DNA from: Escherichia coli
GTDB lineage: Bacteria; Pseudomonadota; Gammaproteobacteria; Enterobacterales; Enterobacteriaceae
DNA length: 64,000 nt
Strand: one strand, 5' to 3'
Assembly: GCF_003018255.1 (NCBI RefSeq)
Contig: NZ_CP027440.1
Shown here: piece by piece, positions 4,835 to 55,607 of the stretch
How the letters are laid out: each line of letters begins with the position of its first letter
How positions within the stretch are numbered: the first letter of the stretch is position 1
The notes under the pieces: generated by a model
Database searches by the model: none
Told to the model about the DNA's origin: nothing
The model's input: only the letters and a program-made list of their open reading frames with translations
Program-made: the position numbers and the translations under genes

Positions 4835-5512
4835 ATGAAGTGGGACTGGATTTTCTTTGATGCCGATGAAACGCTGTTTACCTTTGACTCATTCACCGGC
4901 TTGCAGCGGATGTTTCTTGATTACAGCGTCACCTTTACCGCTGAAGATTTTCAGGACTATCAGGCCGTTAACAAGCCACTGTGGGTGGATTATCAAAACG
5001 GCGCGATCACTTCATTACAGCTTCAGCACGGGCGGTTTGAGAGCTGGGCCGAACGGCTGAACGTCGAGCCGGGTAAACTCAACGAAGCCTTTATTAATGC
5101 GATGGCGGAAATCTGTACGCCACTGCCGGGCGCGGTTTCTCTGCTTAACGCCATTCGTGGCAACGCTAAAATTGGCATCATCACCAACGGCTTTAGCGCC
5201 TTGCAGCAAGTGCGTCTGGAACGCACGGGCCTGCGTGATTATTTCGATTTGCTGGTGATTTCCGAAGAAGTTGGCGTTGCCAAACCGAATAAGAAAATTT
5301 TCGATTATGCGCTGGAACAGGCAGGCAATCCTGACCGTTCACGTGTGCTGATGGTTGGCGACACAGCTGAGTCCGATATTCTCGGTGGCATCAACGCCGG
5401 GCTTGCGACCTGCTGGCTGAATGCGCACAATCGCGAGCAACCAGAAGGCATCGCGCCCACCTGGACCGTTTCTTCGTTGCACGAACTGGAGCAGCTCCTG
5501 TGTAAACACTGA
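4835..5512 (+). CDS. yjjG: HAD-family pyrimidine 5'-nucleotidase YjjG
   Basis: 225-aa ORF starting with the HAD motif I (FFDADETL). Confidence 0.88.
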
Positions 5513-5602
5513 TTGCCTCCCCCCCGTTGATGGGTAAAATAGCCGCAATTTTTCGTTTTCAACAAGCGCGGCGCGATGCCGCTTACTCAAGAAGAAAGAA
5601 TT

Positions 5603-7192
5603 ATGACGTTGTCTCCTTATTTGCAAGAGGTGGCGAAGCGCCGCACTTTTGCCATTATTTCTCACCCGGACGCCGGTAAGACTACCATCACCGAGAAGGT
5701 GCTGCTGTTCGGACAGGCCATTCAGACCGCCGGTACAGTAAAAGGCCGTGGTTCCAACCAGCACGCTAAGTCGGACTGGATGGAGATGGAAAAGCAGCGT
5801 GGGATCTCCATTACTACGTCTGTGATGCAGTTTCCGTATCACGATTGCCTGGTTAACCTGCTCGACACCCCGGGGCACGAAGACTTCTCGGAAGATACCT
5901 ATCGTACCCTGACGGCGGTGGACTGCTGCCTGATGGTTATCGACGCCGCAAAAGGTGTTGAAGATCGTACCCGTAAGCTGATGGAAGTTACCCGTCTGCG
6001 CGACACGCCGATCCTCACCTTTATGAACAAACTTGACCGTGATATCCGCGACCCGATGGAGCTGCTCGATGAAGTTGAGAACGAGCTGAAAATCGGCTGC
6101 GCACCGATCACCTGGCCGATTGGCTGCGGCAAGCTGTTTAAAGGCGTTTACCACCTTTATAAAGATGAAACCTATCTCTATCAGAGCGGTAAAGGCCACA
6201 CGATTCAGGAAGTCCGCATTGTTAAAGGGCTGAATAACCCGGATCTCGACGCTGCGGTTGGTGAAGATCTGGCACAGCAGCTACGTGACGAACTGGAGCT
6301 GGTGAAAGGCGCGTCTAACGAGTTCGACAAAGAGCTGTTCCTTGCGGGCGAAATCACTCCGGTATTCTTCGGTACTGCGCTGGGTAACTTCGGCGTTGAT
6401 CATATGCTGGATGGCCTGGTGGAGTGGGCTCCTGCGCCGATGCCGCGTCAGACTGATACCCGTACCGTAGAGGCGAGCGAAGACAAATTTACCGGCTTCG
6501 TATTTAAAATTCAGGCCAACATGGACCCGAAACACCGCGACCGCGTGGCGTTTATGCGTGTGGTGTCCGGTAAATATGAAAAAGGCATGAAGCTGCGCCA
6601 GGTGCGTACTGCGAAAGATGTGGTGATCTCCGACGCGCTGACCTTTATGGCGGGTGACCGTTCGCACGTTGAAGAAGCGTATCCTGGCGATATCCTTGGT
6701 CTGCACAACCACGGCACCATTCAGATCGGCGACACCTTTACCCAGGGTGAGATGATGAAGTTCACCGGTATTCCGAACTTCGCGCCAGAACTGTTCCGTC
6801 GTATCCGCCTGAAAGATCCGCTGAAGCAAAAACAGCTGCTTAAAGGGCTGGTACAGCTTTCCGAAGAGGGCGCGGTGCAGGTGTTCCGTCCGATCTCCAA
6901 CAACGATCTGATCGTTGGTGCGGTTGGTGTGCTGCAGTTTGATGTGGTGGTAGCGCGTCTGAAGAGCGAATACAACGTTGAAGCAGTGTATGAGTCAGTC
7001 AACGTTGCCACTGCCCGCTGGGTAGAATGTGCGGACGCGAAGAAATTCGAAGAGTTCAAGCGTAAGAACGAAAGCCAACTGGCGCTTGATGGCGGCGATA
7101 ACCTCGCTTACATCGCTACCAGCATGGTCAACCTGCGCCTGGCGCAGGAACGTTATCCAGACGTTCAGTTCCACCAGACCCGCGAGCATTAA
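5603..7192 (+). CDS. prfC: Peptide chain release factor 3 (GTPase)
   Basis: 529-aa product from ATG 5603 with RBS; G1 P-loop [12 protein letters not shown] and DTPGHEDF motifs. Confidence 0.93.
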
Positions 7193-17701: not shown

Positions 17702-17965
17702 TCATTTATGTTCAGCCGTCATCCAGGAAGGGCATATCAGCAACTCTGGTGGACAACCATAAATTCCTGCCATTTTGCTTTTGATGTTTGAACTAAGCCG
17801 TTCCGTCTTTTCGATCTGTTTTAGAGAATTAATGGAGATACCTAACATTTTACTTACTTCAGCAAGTGATAGTTTATGCCTGATACGCACGGCGGTTAGC
17901 CAGGATATACCCTGGCTGAACATTAAATTGATAATCTCCCGTTCCTGGTTTTCCAGATCGATCAT
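17702..17965 (-). CDS. Hypothetical 87-aa XRE/Cro-type HTH protein, strain-specific (occupies the position of yjjJ in K-12)
   Basis: ORF with RBS-like agggaagga upstream of its ATG; HTH-like segment LSLAEVSKMLGISINSLKQIE; sits in an AT-rich segment between the deoD terminator and lplA. Confidence 0.45.
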   Translation of the reverse strand: MIDLENQEREIINLMFSQGISWLTAVRIRHKLSLAEVSKMLGISINSLKQIEKTERLSSNIKSKMAGIYGCPPELLICPSWMTAEHK

Positions 17966-17996
17966 ATTTCCTTCCCTGGATATTTTAATCAGCGAG

Positions 17997-19013
17997 TTAC
18001 CTTACCGCCCCTGCCATCCACGCTGACAACTCCCGTAGCTCTTTTTCCTGTTCCGGGAAGTCAACCAGCAGCGCTTCGCACTCCTGTTGCAGCATATCCG
18101 CGCGGTACAGACAGCCTTGCAGTCGCCCGGCGAGGGCTTCCAGCGGCGCGGGGTTGAGACTGTCGGTAAACACCTGGGCGCGGGTGATATGGCCTTTTTC
18201 AACGTCGAAATGCAGTTCCACGCCGCCCCAGGTAAAGCGTTCATCCAGCAGATGCGAGAATGCCGGAGCCTGACCGAAGTTCCATTCCCAGCTACTCTGG
18301 CGGGCAAAGGTTTCGGCGAAGTTTGGCAAGTCTGGCGTTTTGTCCGGGGAGATGATTTCCGCTTCCACGCGCTCGCCATAATGGGCGAAAAAGGCCTCGG
18401 TTATGGCCTCGCAAACCTGCTCATGGGTGATCCCCGGTAGCAATTCGGTCAGATTGGTCACGCGGGAACGCACTGAGGTAATGCCTTTCGCCGCCAGTTT
18501 CTTTTTATCCGGATTGAGATAGTTTGCCAGGCGGCTAAGGTCGGAATTGAGCAGCAAAGTGCCGTGGTGGAAGCCACGATCTTTGGTTTCGCGATAGGCC
18601 GAGCCTGAGACTTTGCGATCGCCTTCGGCGGTTTTCACCACCAGATCGTTACGCCCGGAAGCTTCGGCGCTGACGCCGAGCGCGTTCAGCGCATTGAGCA
18701 CAATCGACGTGGAGATGGTTTTATCGTACTCCGGCTTGCCAGCCATAAAGGTAAAACAGGTATTGCCGAGATCGTGGAACACTGCGCCGCCACCGCTACT
18801 GCGCCGCGCCAGGCGGACGTTATCTTCTTCCATCCGCCGGGTATTACACTCTTTCCACGGGTTCTGCGCGCGACCAATCACTACCGTGTCGGCATTGCGC
18901 CAGAGAAACAGAACGCGCTGCGTAGCCGGCATCTGGCGAAAAATACACTCCTCTACCGCCAGGTTAAACCACGGGTCGTAAGAGTCAGAGATGAGCAGGC
19001 GTAATGTGGACAT
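17997..19013 (-). CDS. lplA: Lipoate-protein ligase A
   Basis: 338-aa ORF ([25 protein letters not shown]...), expected length. Confidence 0.93.
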
Positions 19014-19040: not shown

Positions 19041-19685
19041 TCACTCTTTTTTCTCGCTTTCTTCCTCTTCCGGCACCGGTTTACTGGCGGTTAACAGGAA
19101 GGGCGATTGCTGCCAGCGGGTGCGTTTACCCTGTAGCAGCGTGCGGGTCAGCACTACGCCGATTGCCAGTGAGAGCAGCAACATCAGGCGTAAAATGTTA
19201 GTGGTGTTATCCACCTGTTGGGCTTCGGTGGCGAGCGTATGGGTGTCGAGCGTAAGGCGCAGATAGCCGAGCGGTCCGTTTTTCCCGGCAATAGGTTCGA
19301 CAATCTGCTGGTTAAAATAGCCGCCCGCTTTTTTGCCGTCGAGCGCCAACCGGTCGCGCACTTCGACGCTTTCGCCAGAACGGGCGATAAGATCGCCTTG
19401 TTCGTCATACACGCCCGCGTCGAGGATACGGCCTTCATCCGTTAACTGATCAAGGATCGCCTGAATGCGTTTTTCATCCGGTGAGTCGGTACGCATCAGC
19501 GGTGCAACGTTCAGCGTCACCTGACGCGCCAGGGTGCGGGCCAGTTCTTCCAGCTGTGGATTACGCTGTCGCTGGTGGTTTTGACTAAACCATGACGCTC
19601 CCTGCATCAGCGCCACTAACAAGGCAAGACAGAACAGGACAATCACTGCCCGATGCAGCCGGAATTTCAGTTTTGTGCGAGCCAT
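19041..19685 (-). CDS. ytjB: Inner membrane protein YtjB (Smp)
   Basis: 214-aa ORF with N-terminal TM segment; divergent from serB. Confidence 0.8.
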   Translation of the reverse strand: MARTKLKFRLHRAVIVLFCLALLVALMQGASWFSQNHQRQRNPQLEELARTLARQVTLNVAPLMRTDSPDEKRIQAILDQLTDEGRILDAGVYDEQGDLIARSGESVEVRDRLALDGKKAGGYFNQQIVEPIAGKNGPLGYLRLTLDTHTLATEAQQVDNTTNILRLMLLLSLAIGVVLTRTLLQGKRTRWQQSPFLLTASKPVPEEEESEKKE

Positions 19686-19790: not shown

Positions 19791-20759
19791 ATGCCTAACA
19801 TTACCTGGTGCGACCTGCCTGAAGATGTCTCTTTATGGCCGGGTCTGCCTCTTTCATTAAGTGGTGATGAAGTGATGCCACTGGATTACCACGCAGGTCG
19901 TAGCGGCTGGCTGCTGTATGGTCGTGGACTGGATAAACAACGTCTGACCCAATACCAGAGCAAACTGGGCGCGGCGATGGTGATTGTTGCCGCCTGGTGC
20001 GTGGAAGATTATCAGGTGATTCGTCTGGCAGGTTCACTCACCGCGCGGGCTACGCGCCTGGCCCACGAAGCGCAGCTGGATGTCGCGCCGCTGGGGAAAA
20101 TCCCGCACCTGCGCACGCCGGGTTTGCTGGTGATGGACATGGATTCCACCGCCATCCAGATTGAATGTATTGATGAAATTGCCAAACTGGCCGGAACGGG
20201 CGAGAGGGTGGCGGAGGTAACCGAACGGGCGATGCGCGGCGAACTCGATTTTACCGCCAGCCTGCGCAGCCGCGTGGCGACGCTGAAAGGCGCTGACGCC
20301 AATATTCTGCAACAGGTGCGTGAAAATCTGCCGCTGATGCCAGGCTTAACGCAGCTGGTACTCAAGCTGGAAACGCTGGGCTGGAAAGTGGCGATTGCCT
20401 CCGGCGGCTTTACTTTCTTTGCTGAATACCTGCGCGACAAGCTGCGCCTGACAGCAGTGGTAGCCAATGAACTGGAGATCATGGACGGTAAATTTACCGG
20501 CAATGTGATCGGCGACATCGTTGACGCGCAATATAAAGCGAAAACCCTGACCCGCCTCGCGCAGGAGTATGAAATCCCGCTGGCGCAGACCGTGGCGATT
20601 GGCGATGGAGCCAATGACCTGCCGATGATCAAAGCGGCAGGGCTGGGGATTGCCTACCATGCCAAGCCAAAAGTGAATGAAAAGACGGAAGTCACCATCC
20701 GTCACGCTGACCTGATGGGGGTATTCTGCATCCTCTCTGGCAGCCTGAATCAGAAGTAA
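19791..20759 (+). CDS. serB: Phosphoserine phosphatase (HAD family)
   Basis: 322-aa product from ATG 19791; HAD motif I LLVMDMDSTAI and motif GDGANDL. Confidence 0.9.
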   Translation: MPNITWCDLPEDVSLWPGLPLSLSGDEVMPLDYHAGRSGWLLYGRGLDKQRLTQYQSKLGAAMVIVAAWCVEDYQVIRLAGSLTARATRLAHEAQLDVAPLGKIPHLRTPGLLVMDMDSTAIQIECIDEIAKLAGTGERVAEVTERAMRGELDFTASLRSRVATLKGADANILQQVRENLPLMPGLTQLVLKLETLGWKVAIASGGFTFFAEYLRDKLRLTAVVANELEIMDGKFTGNVIGDIVDAQYKAKTLTRLAQEYEIPLAQTVAIGDGANDLPMIKAAGLGIAYHAKPKVNEKTEVTIRHADLMGVFCILSGSLNQK

Positions 20760-20807: not shown

Positions 20808-22190
20808 GTGGCAAAAGCTCCAAAACGCGCCTTTGTTTGTAATGAATGCGGGGCCGATTATCCGCGCTGGCAGGGGCAGTGCAGCGCCTGTCATGCCTGG
20901 AACACCATCACCGAGGTGCGTCTTGCTGCGTCGCCAACGGTGGCGCGTAACGAGCGTCTCAGTGGCTATGCCGGTAGCGCCGGAGTGGCAAAAGTCCAGA
21001 AACTTTCCGACATCAGCCTTGAGGAGCTGCCGCGTTTTTCCACCGGATTTAAAGAGTTCGACCGCGTATTAGGCGGCGGGGTGGTGCCGGGAAGCGCCAT
21101 TCTGATTGGCGGTAACCCAGGTGCGGGGAAATCCACGCTGTTGCTGCAAACGCTGTGCAAACTGGCGCAGCAGATGAAAACGCTGTATGTCACTGGCGAA
21201 GAGTCGCTGCAACAGGTGGCAATGCGCGCTCATCGCCTTGGCCTGCCGACTGACAATCTTAATATGCTGTCGGAAACCAGCATCGAGCAGATCTGCCTGA
21301 TTGCCGAAGAAGAGCAACCGAAGCTGATGGTAATTGACTCCATCCAGGTGATGCATATGGCGGATGTTCAGTCATCGCCTGGCAGCGTGGCGCAGGTGCG
21401 TGAAACGGCGGCTTATCTGACGCGCTTCGCCAAAACGCGCGGCGTGGCGATTGTCATGGTTGGGCACGTAACCAAAGATGGCTCGCTGGCTGGCCCTAAA
21501 GTGCTGGAACACTGTATCGACTGTTCGGTGCTTCTGGATGGCGATGCCGACTCTCGTTTTCGCACCTTACGCAGCCATAAAAACCGCTTCGGCGCGGTGA
21601 ATGAGCTGGGCGTCTTCGCGATGACCGAACAGGGGCTGCGTGAAGTTAGCAACCCTTCCGCCATCTTTTTAAGCCGCGGTGATGAAGTGACCTCCGGTAG
21701 CTCAGTGATGGTAGTGTGGGAAGGAACGCGTCCACTGTTGGTGGAGATCCAGGCGCTGGTCGATCACTCGATGATGGCGAACCCACGCCGCGTCGCAGTA
21801 GGGCTGGAGCAAAACCGTCTGGCAATCCTGCTGGCGGTGCTGCACCGTCACGGTGGGTTGCAAATGGCCGATCAGGATGTATTTGTTAACGTGGTCGGCG
21901 GCGTGAAGGTAACGGAAACCAGCGCCGACTTAGCGTTACTGCTGGCGATGGTTTCCAGCCTGCGCGACAGACCGCTGCCGCAGGATCTGGTGGTGTTTGG
22001 TGAAGTCGGGCTGGCAGGGGAGATCCGCCCGGTGCCCAGCGGCCAGGAACGAATTTCTGAAGCGGCGAAACACGGTTTTCGCCGGGCGATTGTTCCGGCG
22101 GCTAACGTGCCGAAAAAAGCGCCGGAAGGGATGCAGATTTTTGGCGTTAAAAAACTCTCCGACGCGCTTAGCGTGTTCGACGACTTATAA
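20808..22190 (+). CDS. radA: DNA repair protein RadA (Sms)
   Basis: 460-aa product from GTG 20808; N-terminal C4 zinc finger (CNECG...CSAC), Walker A GNPGAGKST, Lon-like C-terminal domain. Confidence 0.92.
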   Translation: MAKAPKRAFVCNECGADYPRWQGQCSACHAWNTITEVRLAASPTVARNERLSGYAGSAGVAKVQKLSDISLEELPRFSTGFKEFDRVLGGGVVPGSAILIGGNPGAGKSTLLLQTLCKLAQQMKTLYVTGEESLQQVAMRAHRLGLPTDNLNMLSETSIEQICLIAEEEQPKLMVIDSIQVMHMADVQSSPGSVAQVRETAAYLTRFAKTRGVAIVMVGHVTKDGSLAGPKVLEHCIDCSVLLDGDADSRFRTLRSHKNRFGAVNELGVFAMTEQGLREVSNPSAIFLSRGDEVTSGSSVMVVWEGTRPLLVEIQALVDHSMMANPRRVAVGLEQNRLAILLAVLHRHGGLQMADQDVFVNVVGGVKVTETSADLALLLAMVSSLRDRPLPQDLVVFGEVGLAGEIRPVPSGQERISEAAKHGFRRAIVPAANVPKKAPEGMQIFGVKKLSDALSVFDDL

Positions 22191-22210: not shown

Positions 22211-23443
22211 ATGTCGTCATTTGATTACCTGAAAACTGCCATCAAGCAACAGGGCTGCACGCTACAGCAGGTCGCTGATGCCAGCGGTATGACCAAAGGG
22301 TATTTAAGCCAGTTACTGAATGCCAAAATTAAAAGCCCCAGCGCGCAAAAGCTGGAGGCGTTGCACCGTTTTTTGGGGCTTGAATTTCCCCGACAGAAGA
22401 AAACCATTGGTGTCGTATTCGGTAAGTTCTACCCGCTGCATACCGGACATATCTACCTTATCCAGCGCGCCTGTAGCCAGGTTGACGAGCTGCATATCAT
22501 TATGGGCTTTGACGATACCCGCGACCGCGCGTTGTTCGAAGACAGCGCCATGTCGCAGCAGCCCACGGTGCCGGATCGTCTGCGCTGGTTATTGCAAACC
22601 TTTAAATATCAGAAAAATATCCGTATTCATGCTTTCAATGAAGAGGGCATGGAGCCATATCCGCACGGCTGGGATGTATGGAGCAACGGCATCAAAAAGT
22701 TTATGGCTGAAAAGGGGATCCAGCCGGACCTGATCTACACCTCGGAAGAAGCCGATGCGCCACAGTATATGGAACATCTGGGGATCGAAACGGTGCTGGT
22801 CGATCCGAAACGCACCTTTATGAGTATCAGCGGTGCGCAGATCCGCGAAAACCCGTTCCGCTACTGGGAATATATCCCCACTGAAGTGAAGCCGTTTTTT
22901 GTGCGTACCGTGGCGATCCTTGGCGGCGAGTCGAGCGGTAAATCCACCCTGGTAAACAAACTTGCCAATATCTTCAATACCACCAGTGCGTGGGAATATG
23001 GTCGCGATTATGTCTTTTCACACCTCGGCGGTGATGAGATCGCATTGCAGTATTCCGACTACGATAAAATCGCGCTGGGACACGCACAATACATTGATTT
23101 TGCAGTGAAATATGCCAATAAAGTGGCGTTTATCGACACTGATTTTGTCACTACCCAGGCGTTCTGCAAAAAGTACGAAGGGCGGGAGCATCCGTTCGTG
23201 CAGGCGCTGATCGATGAATACCGTTTTGATCTGGTTATCTTGCTGGAGAACAACACCCCTTGGGTGGCGGATGGTTTACGCAGCCTCGGCAGTTCGGTGG
23301 ATCGCAAAGAGTTCCAGAACTTGCTGGTGGAGATGCTGGAAGAGAACAATATCGAATTTGTGCGGGTTGAAGAAGACGATTATGACAGCCGTTTCCTGCG
23401 CTGCGTGGAGCTGGTGCGGGAGATGATGGGGGAGCAAAGATAA
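22211..23443 (+). CDS. nadR: Trifunctional NadR (HTH repressor / NMN adenylyltransferase / ribosylnicotinamide kinase)
   Basis: 410-aa product; N-terminal HTH, HxGH-type nucleotidyltransferase motif (HTGHIYLI), Walker A GGESSGKST. Confidence 0.92.
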   Translation: MSSFDYLKTAIKQQGCTLQQVADASGMTKGYLSQLLNAKIKSPSAQKLEALHRFLGLEFPRQKKTIGVVFGKFYPLHTGHIYLIQRACSQVDELHIIMGFDDTRDRALFEDSAMSQQPTVPDRLRWLLQTFKYQKNIRIHAFNEEGMEPYPHGWDVWSNGIKKFMAEKGIQPDLIYTSEEADAPQYMEHLGIETVLVDPKRTFMSISGAQIRENPFRYWEYIPTEVKPFFVRTVAILGGESSGKSTLVNKLANIFNTTSAWEYGRDYVFSHLGGDEIALQYSDYDKIALGHAQYIDFAVKYANKVAFIDTDFVTTQAFCKKYEGREHPFVQALIDEYRFDLVILLENNTPWVADGLRSLGSSVDRKEFQNLLVEMLEENNIEFVRVEEDDYDSRFLRCVELVREMMGEQR

Positions 23444-23534
23444 TCATCTTTATAAGATGTTGAGTGGGATTACTGATTCAAAAGTGTACTTAGTACTCCA
23501 TTTTGGTGTACAATGTACCTTCCAGGGAGGGGTA

Positions 23535-23867
23535 ATGGGTAAGGCGATAATATTTATAGAGACGCCAATGTTTACGCGTCAGATCAAGCAGATTGCAACC
23601 GATGATGAATTAAAGGAATTACAAAAAGAACTCATCGGAACTCCCGATAAAGGTGATCTCATTCAGCAGACTGGTGGATTGCGTAAAGTCCGAATGGCTG
23701 CGGGTTCACAGGGAAAAAGTGGCAGTGTCAGAATAATTTACTTTCTGGCGACGGAAGAGATTATTTATTTGATTATGGCCTATCCGAAAAATGCCAAAGA
23801 TAGTCTGACAGATACGGAAAAAGCTCAACTAAAGAAGTTGACGAAACTGCTCAAAGGCGAGATATAA
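23535..23867 (+). CDS. Type II toxin, RelE/ParE superfamily, HigB-2-like (strain-specific insertion)
   Basis: 110-aa ORF with strong RBS gggagggg; core GDLIQQTGGLRKVRMA...GSVRIIYFL...YLIMAYPKNAKDSL resembles HigB-2-type toxins as I recall them; toxin-first order with an adjacent HTH antitoxin. Confidence 0.7.
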   Translation: MGKAIIFIETPMFTRQIKQIATDDELKELQKELIGTPDKGDLIQQTGGLRKVRMAAGSQGKSGSVRIIYFLATEEIIYLIMAYPKNAKDSLTDTEKAQLKKLTKLLKGEI

Positions 23868-23868
23868 A

Positions 23869-24153
23869 ATGAGTTTTTTTGATGAGTTGAAAACCTCTCT
23901 GGAAGAGGCTGTCGAGATTAAACAAGGTTTAAAAGAACCTGCACGGGTGACCCGCTACGAAATTGCGGATGTTAAAGCTATTCGTGAGCAACTCAACGTT
24001 TCGCAAAGTGAGATGGCAAAAGCTCTGGGAACCAGTGTGGATACCATTAAAAGCTGGGAATCGAAGCGAAGAAATCCTACGGGATTGGCTGCAAAAGTAC
24101 TTGCCACAATTAAAGAAAATCCTGACTTTTTCCGGGAACTTGCCTCCCATTAA
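23869..24153 (+). CDS. Type II antitoxin, XRE-type HTH, HigA-2-like
   Basis: 94-aa ORF starting 1 nt after the toxin stop; HTH segment SQSEMAKALGTSVDTIKSWE. Confidence 0.7.
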   Translation: MSFFDELKTSLEEAVEIKQGLKEPARVTRYEIADVKAIREQLNVSQSEMAKALGTSVDTIKSWESKRRNPTGLAAKVLATIKENPDFFRELASH

Positions 24154-24167
24154 TCATTTAACTAATA

Positions 24168-24197
24168 CCGGATGCGATGCTGGCGCGCCGCATCCGG
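24168..24197. repeat. REP-like palindrome between the TA pair and ettA
   Basis: ccggatgcgatgctggcgcgccgcatccgg inverted repeat. Confidence 0.5.
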
Positions 24198-52289: not shown

Positions 52290-52357
52290 AAAAATAGGGT
52301 GCGTTGAAGATATGCGAGCACCTGAAAAGTGGCGGGGATCACTCCCCGCCGTTGCTC

Positions 52358-52510
52358 TTACTCGGATTCGTAAGCCGTGAAAACAGCAACCTCCGTCTGG
52401 CCAGTTCGGATGTGAACCTCACAGAGGTCTTTTCTCGTTACCAGCGCCGCCACTACGGCGGTGATACAGATGACGATCAGGGCGACAATCATCGCCTTAG
52501 GCTGCTTCAT
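52358..52510 (-). CDS. hokC: Type I toxin HokC (Gef), Hok/Gef family membrane toxin
   Basis: 50-aa ORF MKQPKAMIVALIVICITAVVAALVTRKDLCEVHIRTGQTEVAVFTAYESE. Confidence 0.85.
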   Translation of the reverse strand: MKQPKAMIVALIVICITAVVAALVTRKDLCEVHIRTGQTEVAVFTAYESE

Positions 52511-52567
52511 TGCTCTCTTCTCCTTGACCTTACGGTCAGTAAGAGGCACTCTACATGTGTTCTGCAT
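52358..52567 (-). CDS. mokC: Overlapping regulatory ORF MokC (same frame as hokC, N-terminally extended)
   Basis: 69-codon in-frame extension upstream of hokC, as in hok/mok/sok loci. Confidence 0.6.
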   Translation of the reverse strand: MQNTCRVPLTDRKVKEKRAMKQPKAMIVALIVICITAVVAALVTRKDLCEVHIRTGQTEVAVFTAYESE

Positions 52568-52613
52568 ATAGGGGGCCTCGGGTTGATAGTAAAATATCAC
52601 TCGGGGCTTTTCT
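52559..52613 (+). ncRNA. sokC: Possible SokC antisense RNA (antitoxin of hokC)
   Basis: Positional inference from the K-12 arrangement, where sokC overlaps the mokC start in antisense; no independent sequence signal checked. Confidence 0.3.
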
Positions 52614-53095
52614 CTATCTGCCGTTCAGCTAATGCCTGAGACAGACAGCCTCAAGCACCCGCCGCTATTATATCGCTCTCTTTAACCCATTCTGTTTTAT
52701 CGATTCTAATCCTGAAGACGCCTCGCATTTTTATGGCGTAATTTTTTAATGATTTAATTATTTAACTTTAATTTATCTCTTCATCGCAATTATTGACGAC
52801 AAACTGGATTATTTTTGAAGTATTGGCCTAACAAACATCGCCGACTGACAACAAATTAATTATTACTTTTCCTAATTAATCCCTCAGAAATCCTGACCTT
52901 AAGCTATGATTATCAGGGCTTAGGGTCACACGTCAGCGCTTACAGCCGTCAAAAACTCATCTCATCACTGATGACGCAAATCCTTCAATGCCTCGTAAAA
53001 AGCGAATTATTCCTACACTATAATCTGATTTTAACGATGATTCGTGCGGGGTAAGATAGTAAAAACGATCTATTCACCTGAAAGAGAAATAAAAA

Positions 53096-54321: not shown

Positions 54322-55227
54322 ATGAGCATGTCTCATATCAATTACAACCACTTGTATTACTTCTGGCATGTCTATAAAGAAGGTTCCGTGGTTGGCGCAG
54401 CGGAGGCGCTTTATTTAACACCACAAACCATTACCGGACAGATTCGGGCGCTGGAAGAGCGCCTGCAAGGCAAATTATTTAAGCGCAAGGGACGTGGCCT
54501 CGAGCCCAGCGAGCTGGGAGAGCTGGTCTATCGCTATGCCGATAAAATGTTCACCTTAAGCCAGGAAATGCTGGATATCGTCAACTATCGCAAAGAGTCC
54601 AACTTATTGTTTGATGTTGGTGTGGCAGATGCACTTTCCAAACGTCTGGTCAGCAGTGTTCTGGATGCCGCAGTTGTGGAAGACGAGCAGATCCATCTAC
54701 GCTGTTTCGAATCGACGCACGAGATGCTTTTAGAGCAGTTGAGTCAGCATAAACTGGATATGATCATCTCTGACTGTCCGATCGATTCCACTCAGCAGGA
54801 AGGGCTGTTTTCCATGAAAATTGGCGAATGTGGTGTCAGTTTCTGGTGCACTAACCCACTACCAGAAAAGCCGTTTCCTGCCTGTCTTGAAGAGCGTCGT
54901 TTACTTATTCCGGGGCGTCGCTCAATGTTGGGGCGTAAGCTATTAAACTGGTTTAACTCCCAGGGCTTGAACGTCGAAATTTTGGGTGAGTTTGATGATG
55001 CTGCGTTGATGAAAGCCTTTGGGGCGACGCATAACGCTATTTTCGTTGCACCTTCGCTTTACGCTAATGATTTCTATAACGATGACTCGGTTGTGGAGAT
55101 AGGCCGTGTTGAGAACGTGATGGAAGAGTACCACGCGATTTTTGCCGAAAGGATGATTCAGCACCCTGCAGTACAGCGTATCTGCAATACAGACTATTCT
55201 GCGCTGTTTACTCCAGCTTCAAAATAA
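54322..55227 (+). CDS. nhaR: LysR-family transcriptional activator NhaR
   Basis: 301-aa product from [41 protein letters not shown] (LysR HTH). Confidence 0.9.
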
Positions 55228-55271
55228 ACATTTGTACTTTGCAGGCCGAATTTTGGCCTGCAGATGGATAT

Positions 55272-55299
55272 AAAAAAACCCGCCAGAGCGGGTTTTTTT
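55272..55299. terminator. Bidirectional terminator between nhaR and rpsT
   Basis: aaaaaaacccgccagagcgggttttttt: hairpin flanked by A- and T-runs. Confidence 0.8.
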
Positions 55300-55322
55300 A
55301 CAAAGCTGACAACAACAGGCAA

Positions 55323-55607
<285 letters not shown>

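Follow-up and report, generated by a model that had tools for sequence, protein, structure and literature searches.

The spacer between nhaR and rpsT raises the question of why an interval that holds an IS1 copy in Escherichia coli K-12 is short and IS1 free in another E. coli strain, and whether the two states differ by the insertion element alone. In the window, i.e., the whole 64-kb stretch of E. coli DNA analyzed here, the open reading frame of nhaR and its translation extend over positions 54322 to 55227 of the plus strand, with a TAA stop codon at 55225 to 55227, and encode a LysR-type activator of nhaA of 301 aa. An identical gene is annotated in ATCC 11775 by RefSeq. The convergent rpsT gene, identified by its open reading frame and the RefSeq annotation, encodes the ribosomal protein S20 (87 aa) at 55323 to 55586 on the minus strand, with its stop codon at 55323 to 55325. 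The spacer enclosed by the two stop codons (55228 to 55322) comprises 95 bp, which agrees with the gap of about 95 bp given in an earlier note on this DNA. A spacer of this length leaves no room for the 768-bp IS1, and neither the terminal inverted repeats nor the 768-bp insA/insB body of the element is found there. The earlier note had named the IS1 inverted repeat as the feature that would speak against its claim of a missing IS1; a search that tolerated as many as 3 mismatches yields zero matches over all 64 kb, so that the claim holds for the spacer and no IS1 end lies anywhere in the window. Two small open reading frames in the spacer, at 55194 to 55322 (minus strand, 42 aa) and at 55239 to 55571 (plus strand, antisense to rpsT), were rejected as genes, as they overlap the terminator hairpins or the antisense strand of rpsT and have no support.

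K-12 does carry IS1 at this site. In MG1655, nhaR ends at 19620 and rpsT starts at 20815, and the spacer of 1,194 bp holds IS1A (insA1/insB1, b0022/b0021) at record positions 19796 to 20563, which is the same intergenic interval as the spacer of the window. A 2025 study of IS1 transposition likewise places IS1A in the nhaR-rpsT interval of K-12, with a strong rpsT terminator upstream of the element (PMC12428005). The assignment of the window to a non-K-12 background is confirmed by its top matches, JNE23-011 and JNE112863, with 100% identity over 10 kb, and APEC O78:H4 and APEC O2-211, with 99.7%. The absence of IS1 is simply explained by IS1A being an event of the K-12 lineage in a different allele of the locus, and the finding as first stated is an ordinary strain polymorphism.

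Two further differences from K-12 had been named together with the missing IS1, and both are present. IS186A, which lies beside hokC in K-12, is not found in the window: at 52335 to 52346 (K-12 L001, 1388 to 2732), the flank on the dnaJ side passes directly into mokC, the two alignments overlap by 12 bp, and the IS186A beside hokC/mokC is absent. The sok/hokC RNA family is recognized nearby at 52508 to 52660 on the minus strand (Rfam, 118.8 bits) and is unrelated to the spacer. The missing yjjJ corresponds to window positions 17710 to 17998, where ∼287 bp of unrelated sequence lies between deoD and lplA in place of hipH (yjjJ) of K-12 (4621769 to 4623100), the replaced K-12 interval being 4621771 to 4623102. 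In addition, the nadR-ettA spacer at 23443 to 24184 is ∼460 bp longer than that of K-12 (4628547 to 4628830), and only a 141-bp piece of it aligns.

The comparison drawn at first implied that K-12 carries the spacer of the window plus an IS1, which does not hold. The non-IS1 spacer DNA of K-12 amounts to 175 + 251 bp and consists of the ends of an O157-type island. On the nhaR side of IS1A, all 175 bp match the corresponding end of the O157 island at 100% identity; on the rpsT side, 249 of 251 bp align with the other end of that island at 98.8%. IS1A (L001, 5797 to 6564) replaces ∼6.5 kb of the fimbrial/espX1 island (O157 L004, 2297 to 8802) and has no target-site duplication, its flanks being gtaattgct and tacctcaat; it looks like an IS1-associated deletion and not like a simple insertion. 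As IS1A is embedded in island ends, its deletion from K-12 would not regenerate the spacer of the window, and the two loci therefore differ by far more than one insertion.

The nhaR-rpsT site is hypervariable in E. coli. An island is normally present there in E. coli and its closest relatives, containing either a GH31 hydrolase and an MFS transporter or a chaperone-usher fimbrial operon with espX1, or else decayed remains. O157:H7 has an island of 6,932 bp with the chaperone-usher fimbrial operon and espX1, and UMNK88 has a decayed fimbrial/espX1 island. ST131 strain EC958 and TUM14697 carry 3,886 bp with the GH31 glycoside hydrolase and the MFS transporter, a gene pair that E. whittamii (86% identity) and four Citrobacter species (76 to 77%) likewise have at this position. 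Fimbrial-type remains occupy the site in E. albertii and in a divergent genome labeled as E. coli.

The informative difference between the window and K-12 is not IS1 but a divergent block of 616 bp on the plus strand (54654 to 55269), which contains nhaR codons 111 to 301 (the last 574 bp of the gene) and the first 42 bp of the spacer. Pairwise alignment with K-12, O157, UMNK88, and TUM14697 shows 75 to 85% identity over the 3' part of nhaR and remains possible up to ∼55217; the following stretch, 55218 to 55269, has no counterpart in any of these four genomes. Outside the block, the window is 97 to 100% identical to at least one of the four on either side, and the stretch from 55270 to 56000 matches TUM14697 at 100%. 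Compared site by site, the alleles put the left edge of the block between 54646 and 54653; its right edge, at 55269/55270, is where the terminator motif ATAAAAAAACCCGC (55270 to 55283) begins. The block is ∼20% divergent from other E. coli alleles, and its G+C content is unremarkable.

The step-like nature of this divergence is evident from the comparison of ATCC 11775, which carries the block, with EC958, both of which have the B2-type nhaA. The two strains show 0 differences in nhaR codons 1 to 110 and only scattered ones across nhaA, followed from 54654 by 8 to 16 differences in each 60 bp until nhaR ends at 55227. For codons 111 to 301, the proportion of synonymous differences (pS) is 0.73 and thus saturated, with a dS of ∼3, a dN of 0.05, and a dN/dS ratio of 0.018. 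The NhaR protein of the block has 15 amino acid changes relative to that of K-12, and the divergence is mostly synonymous, as for an orthologue under purifying selection and not for one in accelerated evolution. In a neighbor-joining tree of 565 bp, which was calculated without bootstrapping and places the block only approximately, the block forms a long branch outside the clade of the native alleles of E. coli, E. albertii, E. whittamii, and E1V33, with p-distances of 0.18 to 0.20 to all sampled loci. The nhaA gene of the window, unlike the block, groups with those of K-12 and O157, a phylogenetic incongruence. Together, the step and the tree bear the signature of an orthologue acquired from a distant lineage by recombination, as opposed to divergence in place. 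Just upstream, the 5' part of nhaR at 54420 to 54522 is a patchwork of K-12-type and B2-type variants with three private ones (54498, 54504, and 54522) and becomes B2-like from 54579 on, which indicates recombination among E. coli alleles at that position.

The same flanks bear on the possibility that foreign DNA played no part and that a K-12-like or O157-like locus simply lost IS1, the island, or both, through precise excision or an IS1-mediated deletion. Deletions next to IS1 are a known effect of the element, and the replacement of ∼6.5 kb of island by the K-12 IS1A with no target duplication is in line with such an event. Against a deletion of this kind, 55218 to 55269 has no match in K-12, O157, UMNK88, or TUM14697, and the 574 bp of nhaR upstream of it are ∼20% divergent from the alleles of all four strains. 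Moreover, the three genomes with a native allele and a shortened spacer described below retain an extra ∼450 to 500 bp. Judged from these sequences, the flank comparison already refutes an origin by simple deletion, which we consider extremely unlikely.

The spacer itself contains two hairpins with fold z-scores of −5.5 to −7.3, and 0 of 200 shuffled sequences fold equally well in RNA folding. It had been described as a single bidirectional terminator; this description stands for the rpsT-proximal hairpin HP2, which has the architecture of such an element, but not for the spacer as a whole, since a second hairpin, HP1, is also present. HP1 lies proximal to nhaR on the plus strand at 55238 to 55264, inside the divergent block, with a 12-bp stem and the perfect palindrome arms 55240 to 55247 and 55255 to 55262 (ΔG of −18.7 kcal/mol, z-score of −5.5). 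No U-tract follows HP1 on either strand, and it is therefore not a canonical intrinsic terminator. It is missing from K-12, O157, and TUM14697, which carry other hairpins past the nhaR stop codon. HP1 was also considered as a repeated palindrome of the REP/BIME type and rejected as such: with 3 or fewer mismatches allowed, its core occurs just once in the 64 kb apart from the match to its own reverse strand, and it is missing from the other alleles of the locus.

HP2 is a predicted bidirectional intrinsic terminator at 55272 to 55299, readable on both strands, and is built from an A7 tract (55272 to 55278), a cccgc/gcggg stem (55279 to 55283 and 55288 to 55292) with the loop caga, and a T7 tract (55293 to 55299). 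Its fold has a ΔG of −16.8 kcal/mol on the plus strand and −19.4 kcal/mol on the minus strand, with z-scores of −6.7 and −7.3. The U-tracts abut the stem in both directions, T7 serving the plus strand and A7 becoming U7 on the minus strand. The view that nhaR and rpsT converge on one shared hairpin is thereby borne out at the level of architecture, the A7-stem-T7 arrangement being predicted to be able to terminate transcription of both genes; from sequence and folding, use of HP2 in both directions is plausible. A general class of bidirectional intrinsic terminators between convergent genes has reportedly been described by Ju, Li, and Liu in 2019. A scan with a terminator consensus did not pick up HP2, probably because A7 and T7 pair with each other and consume the T tail. 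Rfam 15 matches in the region from 55213 to 55379 all have scores of 20 to 32 bits, compared to gathering thresholds of 41 to 60, and are terminator look-alikes.

The rpsT terminator of K-12 is the same element as HP2, with the same stem and A7 tract, a 5-bp GC-rich stem, and a 4-nucleotide loop. In K-12, however, this hairpin serves rpsT only, as nhaR lies 1.1 kb away behind IS1A and the island remains, and the T-tract of the plus strand is interrupted (gcgggCtttttC). In the window, nhaR ends 44 bp upstream of HP2 and the plus-strand T-tract is perfect. Two types of the adjoining sequence can be distinguished: that of the window at 55270 to 55322, with the loop caga and ending in ctgacaacaacaggcaa, is the EC958/TUM14697 type, whereas the K-12/O157 type (K-12 L001, 6763 to 6815) has the loop ttgc and ends in cttcagcaaattggcga. 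The loop and the 24 bp up to the rpsT stop codon differ strongly between the two types, and the type follows that of the adjacent island.

Beyond E. coli, the junction was compared across 80 species-level loci listed from a scan of species-representative genomes with the C-terminal 210 aa of NhaR; E. fergusonii and several other Escherichia species are not among them. In ∼57 of the 74 listed loci with both genes, the spacer measures 47 to 199 bp, and its constant part is HP2; the compact nhaR-rpsT layout is thus usual in the Enterobacteriaceae. All five stem pairs of HP2 are kept in 99 to 100% of 72 distinct enterobacterial sequences. Pair 3 is C-G in 63 sequences and a compensatory G-C in 8, a variation that probably represents a single event in the Buttiauxella group. 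The A7 tract, which provides the U-tract for rpsT, is almost invariant; the T-tract of the plus strand is more variable, as in K-12.

With the compact layout as the family-wide norm, the empty site looks ancestral at first sight, and the short spacer could be taken for the original state of E. coli, the islands and IS1 having been inserted later in other lineages and the nhaR divergence being an old polymorphism that originated in place. The Escherichia relatives among the listed loci with a readable downstream region do not agree with this explanation, as all of them are occupied (E. whittamii with 3,916 bp, E. albertii with 1,230 bp, and L013 with 763 bp). Two other loci, L016 and L043, have no rpsT within ∼4 kb. 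The native nhaR 3' alleles of E. coli, E. albertii, and E. whittamii also form one clade that excludes the block, and a step from 0 differences in codons 1 to 110 to saturated synonymous divergence, as between ATCC 11775 and EC958, cannot arise in place. An ancestral compact spacer is very unlikely on these grounds, if slightly less so than a simple deletion.

Recombinational import is further consistent with the linkage of block and junction in the population. In a megablast search of 5,425 complete E. coli genomes, the block is present at ≥99% identity in 556, with one additional partial copy. The junction from 55150 to 55400 is intact in 556 of the 5,425 genomes, and a 1.2-kb query spanning it is contiguous in 556, so that the compact junction occurs in ∼10% of complete E. 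coli genomes. The counts for block (556 and 1 partial) and junction (556) are one genome apart, and one block-carrying genome may have a disrupted or split junction. The reverse combination was searched for with a synthetic query in which the nhaR 3' end of K-12 is joined to the terminator and rpsT, and the two parts lie within 900 bp of each other in only 4 genomes. In three of the four, an extra ∼450 to 500 bp separates the genes, and a fimbrial gene fragment is annotated in the two that were inspected. The fourth, Z1323CEC0015, has a 95-bp spacer and an nhaR gene alternating between native and block sequence, i.e., a secondary mosaic. Its nhaR (L087, 3511 to 4410) is, in window-equivalent positions, K-12-like up to 54895, block-like from 54896 to 54955, K-12-like from 54956 to 55015, and block-like again from ∼55040 into the spacer. 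By this survey, the clean short spacer never occurs with a fully native nhaR allele.

Carriers of the block include ATCC 11775, Nissle 1917, APEC IMT5155, and APEC O1:K1:H7. The ST131-type B2 strain EC958 does not carry it and has the native nhaR 3' end together with the GH31/MFS island. The block of the window is combined with a K-12-like nhaA, and that of ATCC 11775 is combined with a B2-type nhaA that is 93% identical to the nhaA of the window, so that exchange between backgrounds has affected the block or its flanks.

The search for a donor yielded no candidate for the block among the 80 listed species loci, where the best non-self DNA identity is 81 to 82%, shared by native E. coli and two Citrobacter species. 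A comparison of the 191-aa block product with 5.8 billion proteins gave matches of 100% and 99% from E. coli clusters and then of 92%, with no match of intermediate identity. Metagenomes were scanned with a peptide pattern specific to the block (for YANDFYNDD), and the matches were two E. coli-like contigs and a single chance hit.

A close relative, such as an Escherichia cryptic clade or E. fergusonii, might be suspected as the source, as Lescat et al. proposed for the B2-type nhaAR as a whole (PMC4182557). E. fergusonii and some of the clades are outside the 80 listed loci, and the unusual nhaR 3' end of Escherichia sp. MOD1-EC7003 (L043) indicates that such alleles circulate within the genus. 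The block is nevertheless 18 to 21% divergent from each listed Escherichia allele (E. coli, E. albertii, E. whittamii, E1V33, and MOD1-EC7003), far above the 5 to 10% seen in nhaA, and its synonymous sites are saturated. A donor from within the genus is hence unlikely, though somewhat easier to envisage than an ancestral compact spacer. The nhaR gene of MOD1-EC7003 (∼5050 to 5953) groups with that of Kluyvera georgiana (85.6% identity over 902 bp), and its nhaA is 94% identical to that of the window, which suggests that its nhaR results from a second, independent replacement at the same locus.

We propose, with a probability of roughly 80%, that the compact junction and the block result from recombinational import from a distant enterobacterium that also removed the island, leaving HP2 as a bidirectional terminator, and that they spread afterward. 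The donor would be a distant enterobacterium with the compact layout, contributing its DNA in a single recombination event. Within nhaR, the left crossover would fall between 54646 and 54653. On the right, the universally conserved first 14 nucleotides of the terminator (ATAAAAAAACCCGC) would hold the junction, since both the terminator loop and the sequence beyond it on the right belong to the EC958/TUM14697 type. Such an event would have replaced the part of nhaR encoding the effector domain and removed the island, most simply one of the GH31/MFS type, given the identity of the right flank. The block would later have spread among E. coli lineages by ordinary recombination, which would explain its occurrence with a K-12-like nhaA in the window and a B2-type nhaA in ATCC 11775. 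At the resulting junction, transcription of both rpsT and nhaR would run into HP2, where the U residues on either strand could permit intrinsic termination in both directions. We infer a single event, the direction of transfer, and removal of the island by the import itself; the island could also have been lost before or after the import. A more specific version remains tentative and is considerably less probable than the general proposal: one homology-facilitated illegitimate recombination with an unsampled enterobacterial genus, anchored by homology in nhaR and ending in the 14 nucleotides of the terminator, may in one step have exchanged the effector-binding domain of NhaR (15 amino acid changes) and deleted the GH31/MFS island of ∼3.9 kb, followed by spread between phylogroups.

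Much of the divergence at this locus has been described before. According to Lescat et al. [quoted passage not shown] Those authors link the divergent nhaR allele to B2 strains and extraintestinal virulence and describe volatile modules flanking nhaAR (hokC, a sulfatase, fimbrial genes, and a type III secretion system effector) that have been gained and lost repeatedly. The B2-type nhaAR of that study is the same locus as the junction of the window, and its divergence is largely reported there. Relative to the consulted parts of that paper, the present analysis resolves the nhaR divergence to a discrete block of 616 bp with ∼20% divergence and defined edges, the right one being the rpsT terminator. 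It further ties the block to the island-free junction, finds it missing from ST131-type B2 strains and present with a non-B2 nhaA in the window, and, by the extent of the divergence, points past the Escherichia clades for the donor. A literature search returned no paper that pairs nhaR with rpsT and fimbrial genes or espX1 with nhaR. The underlying structure is of a known kind, a bidirectional terminator beside a recombinant allele at a known hypervariable locus, and the phenomenon as such is already published.

The IS1-free spacer by itself serves as a strain marker, identifying the window as not K-12, and is of little consequence. Comparison of this locus with K-12 "minus the IS" can mislead, which calls for caution. 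For the population genomics of E. coli, the analysis gives the precise boundaries of the divergent nhaR allele and the number of genomes that carry it. The allele is not shared by all of B2, ST131-type strains being without it, and it is present together with a K-12-like nhaA in the window; its occurrence is linked to loss of the island downstream of nhaR.
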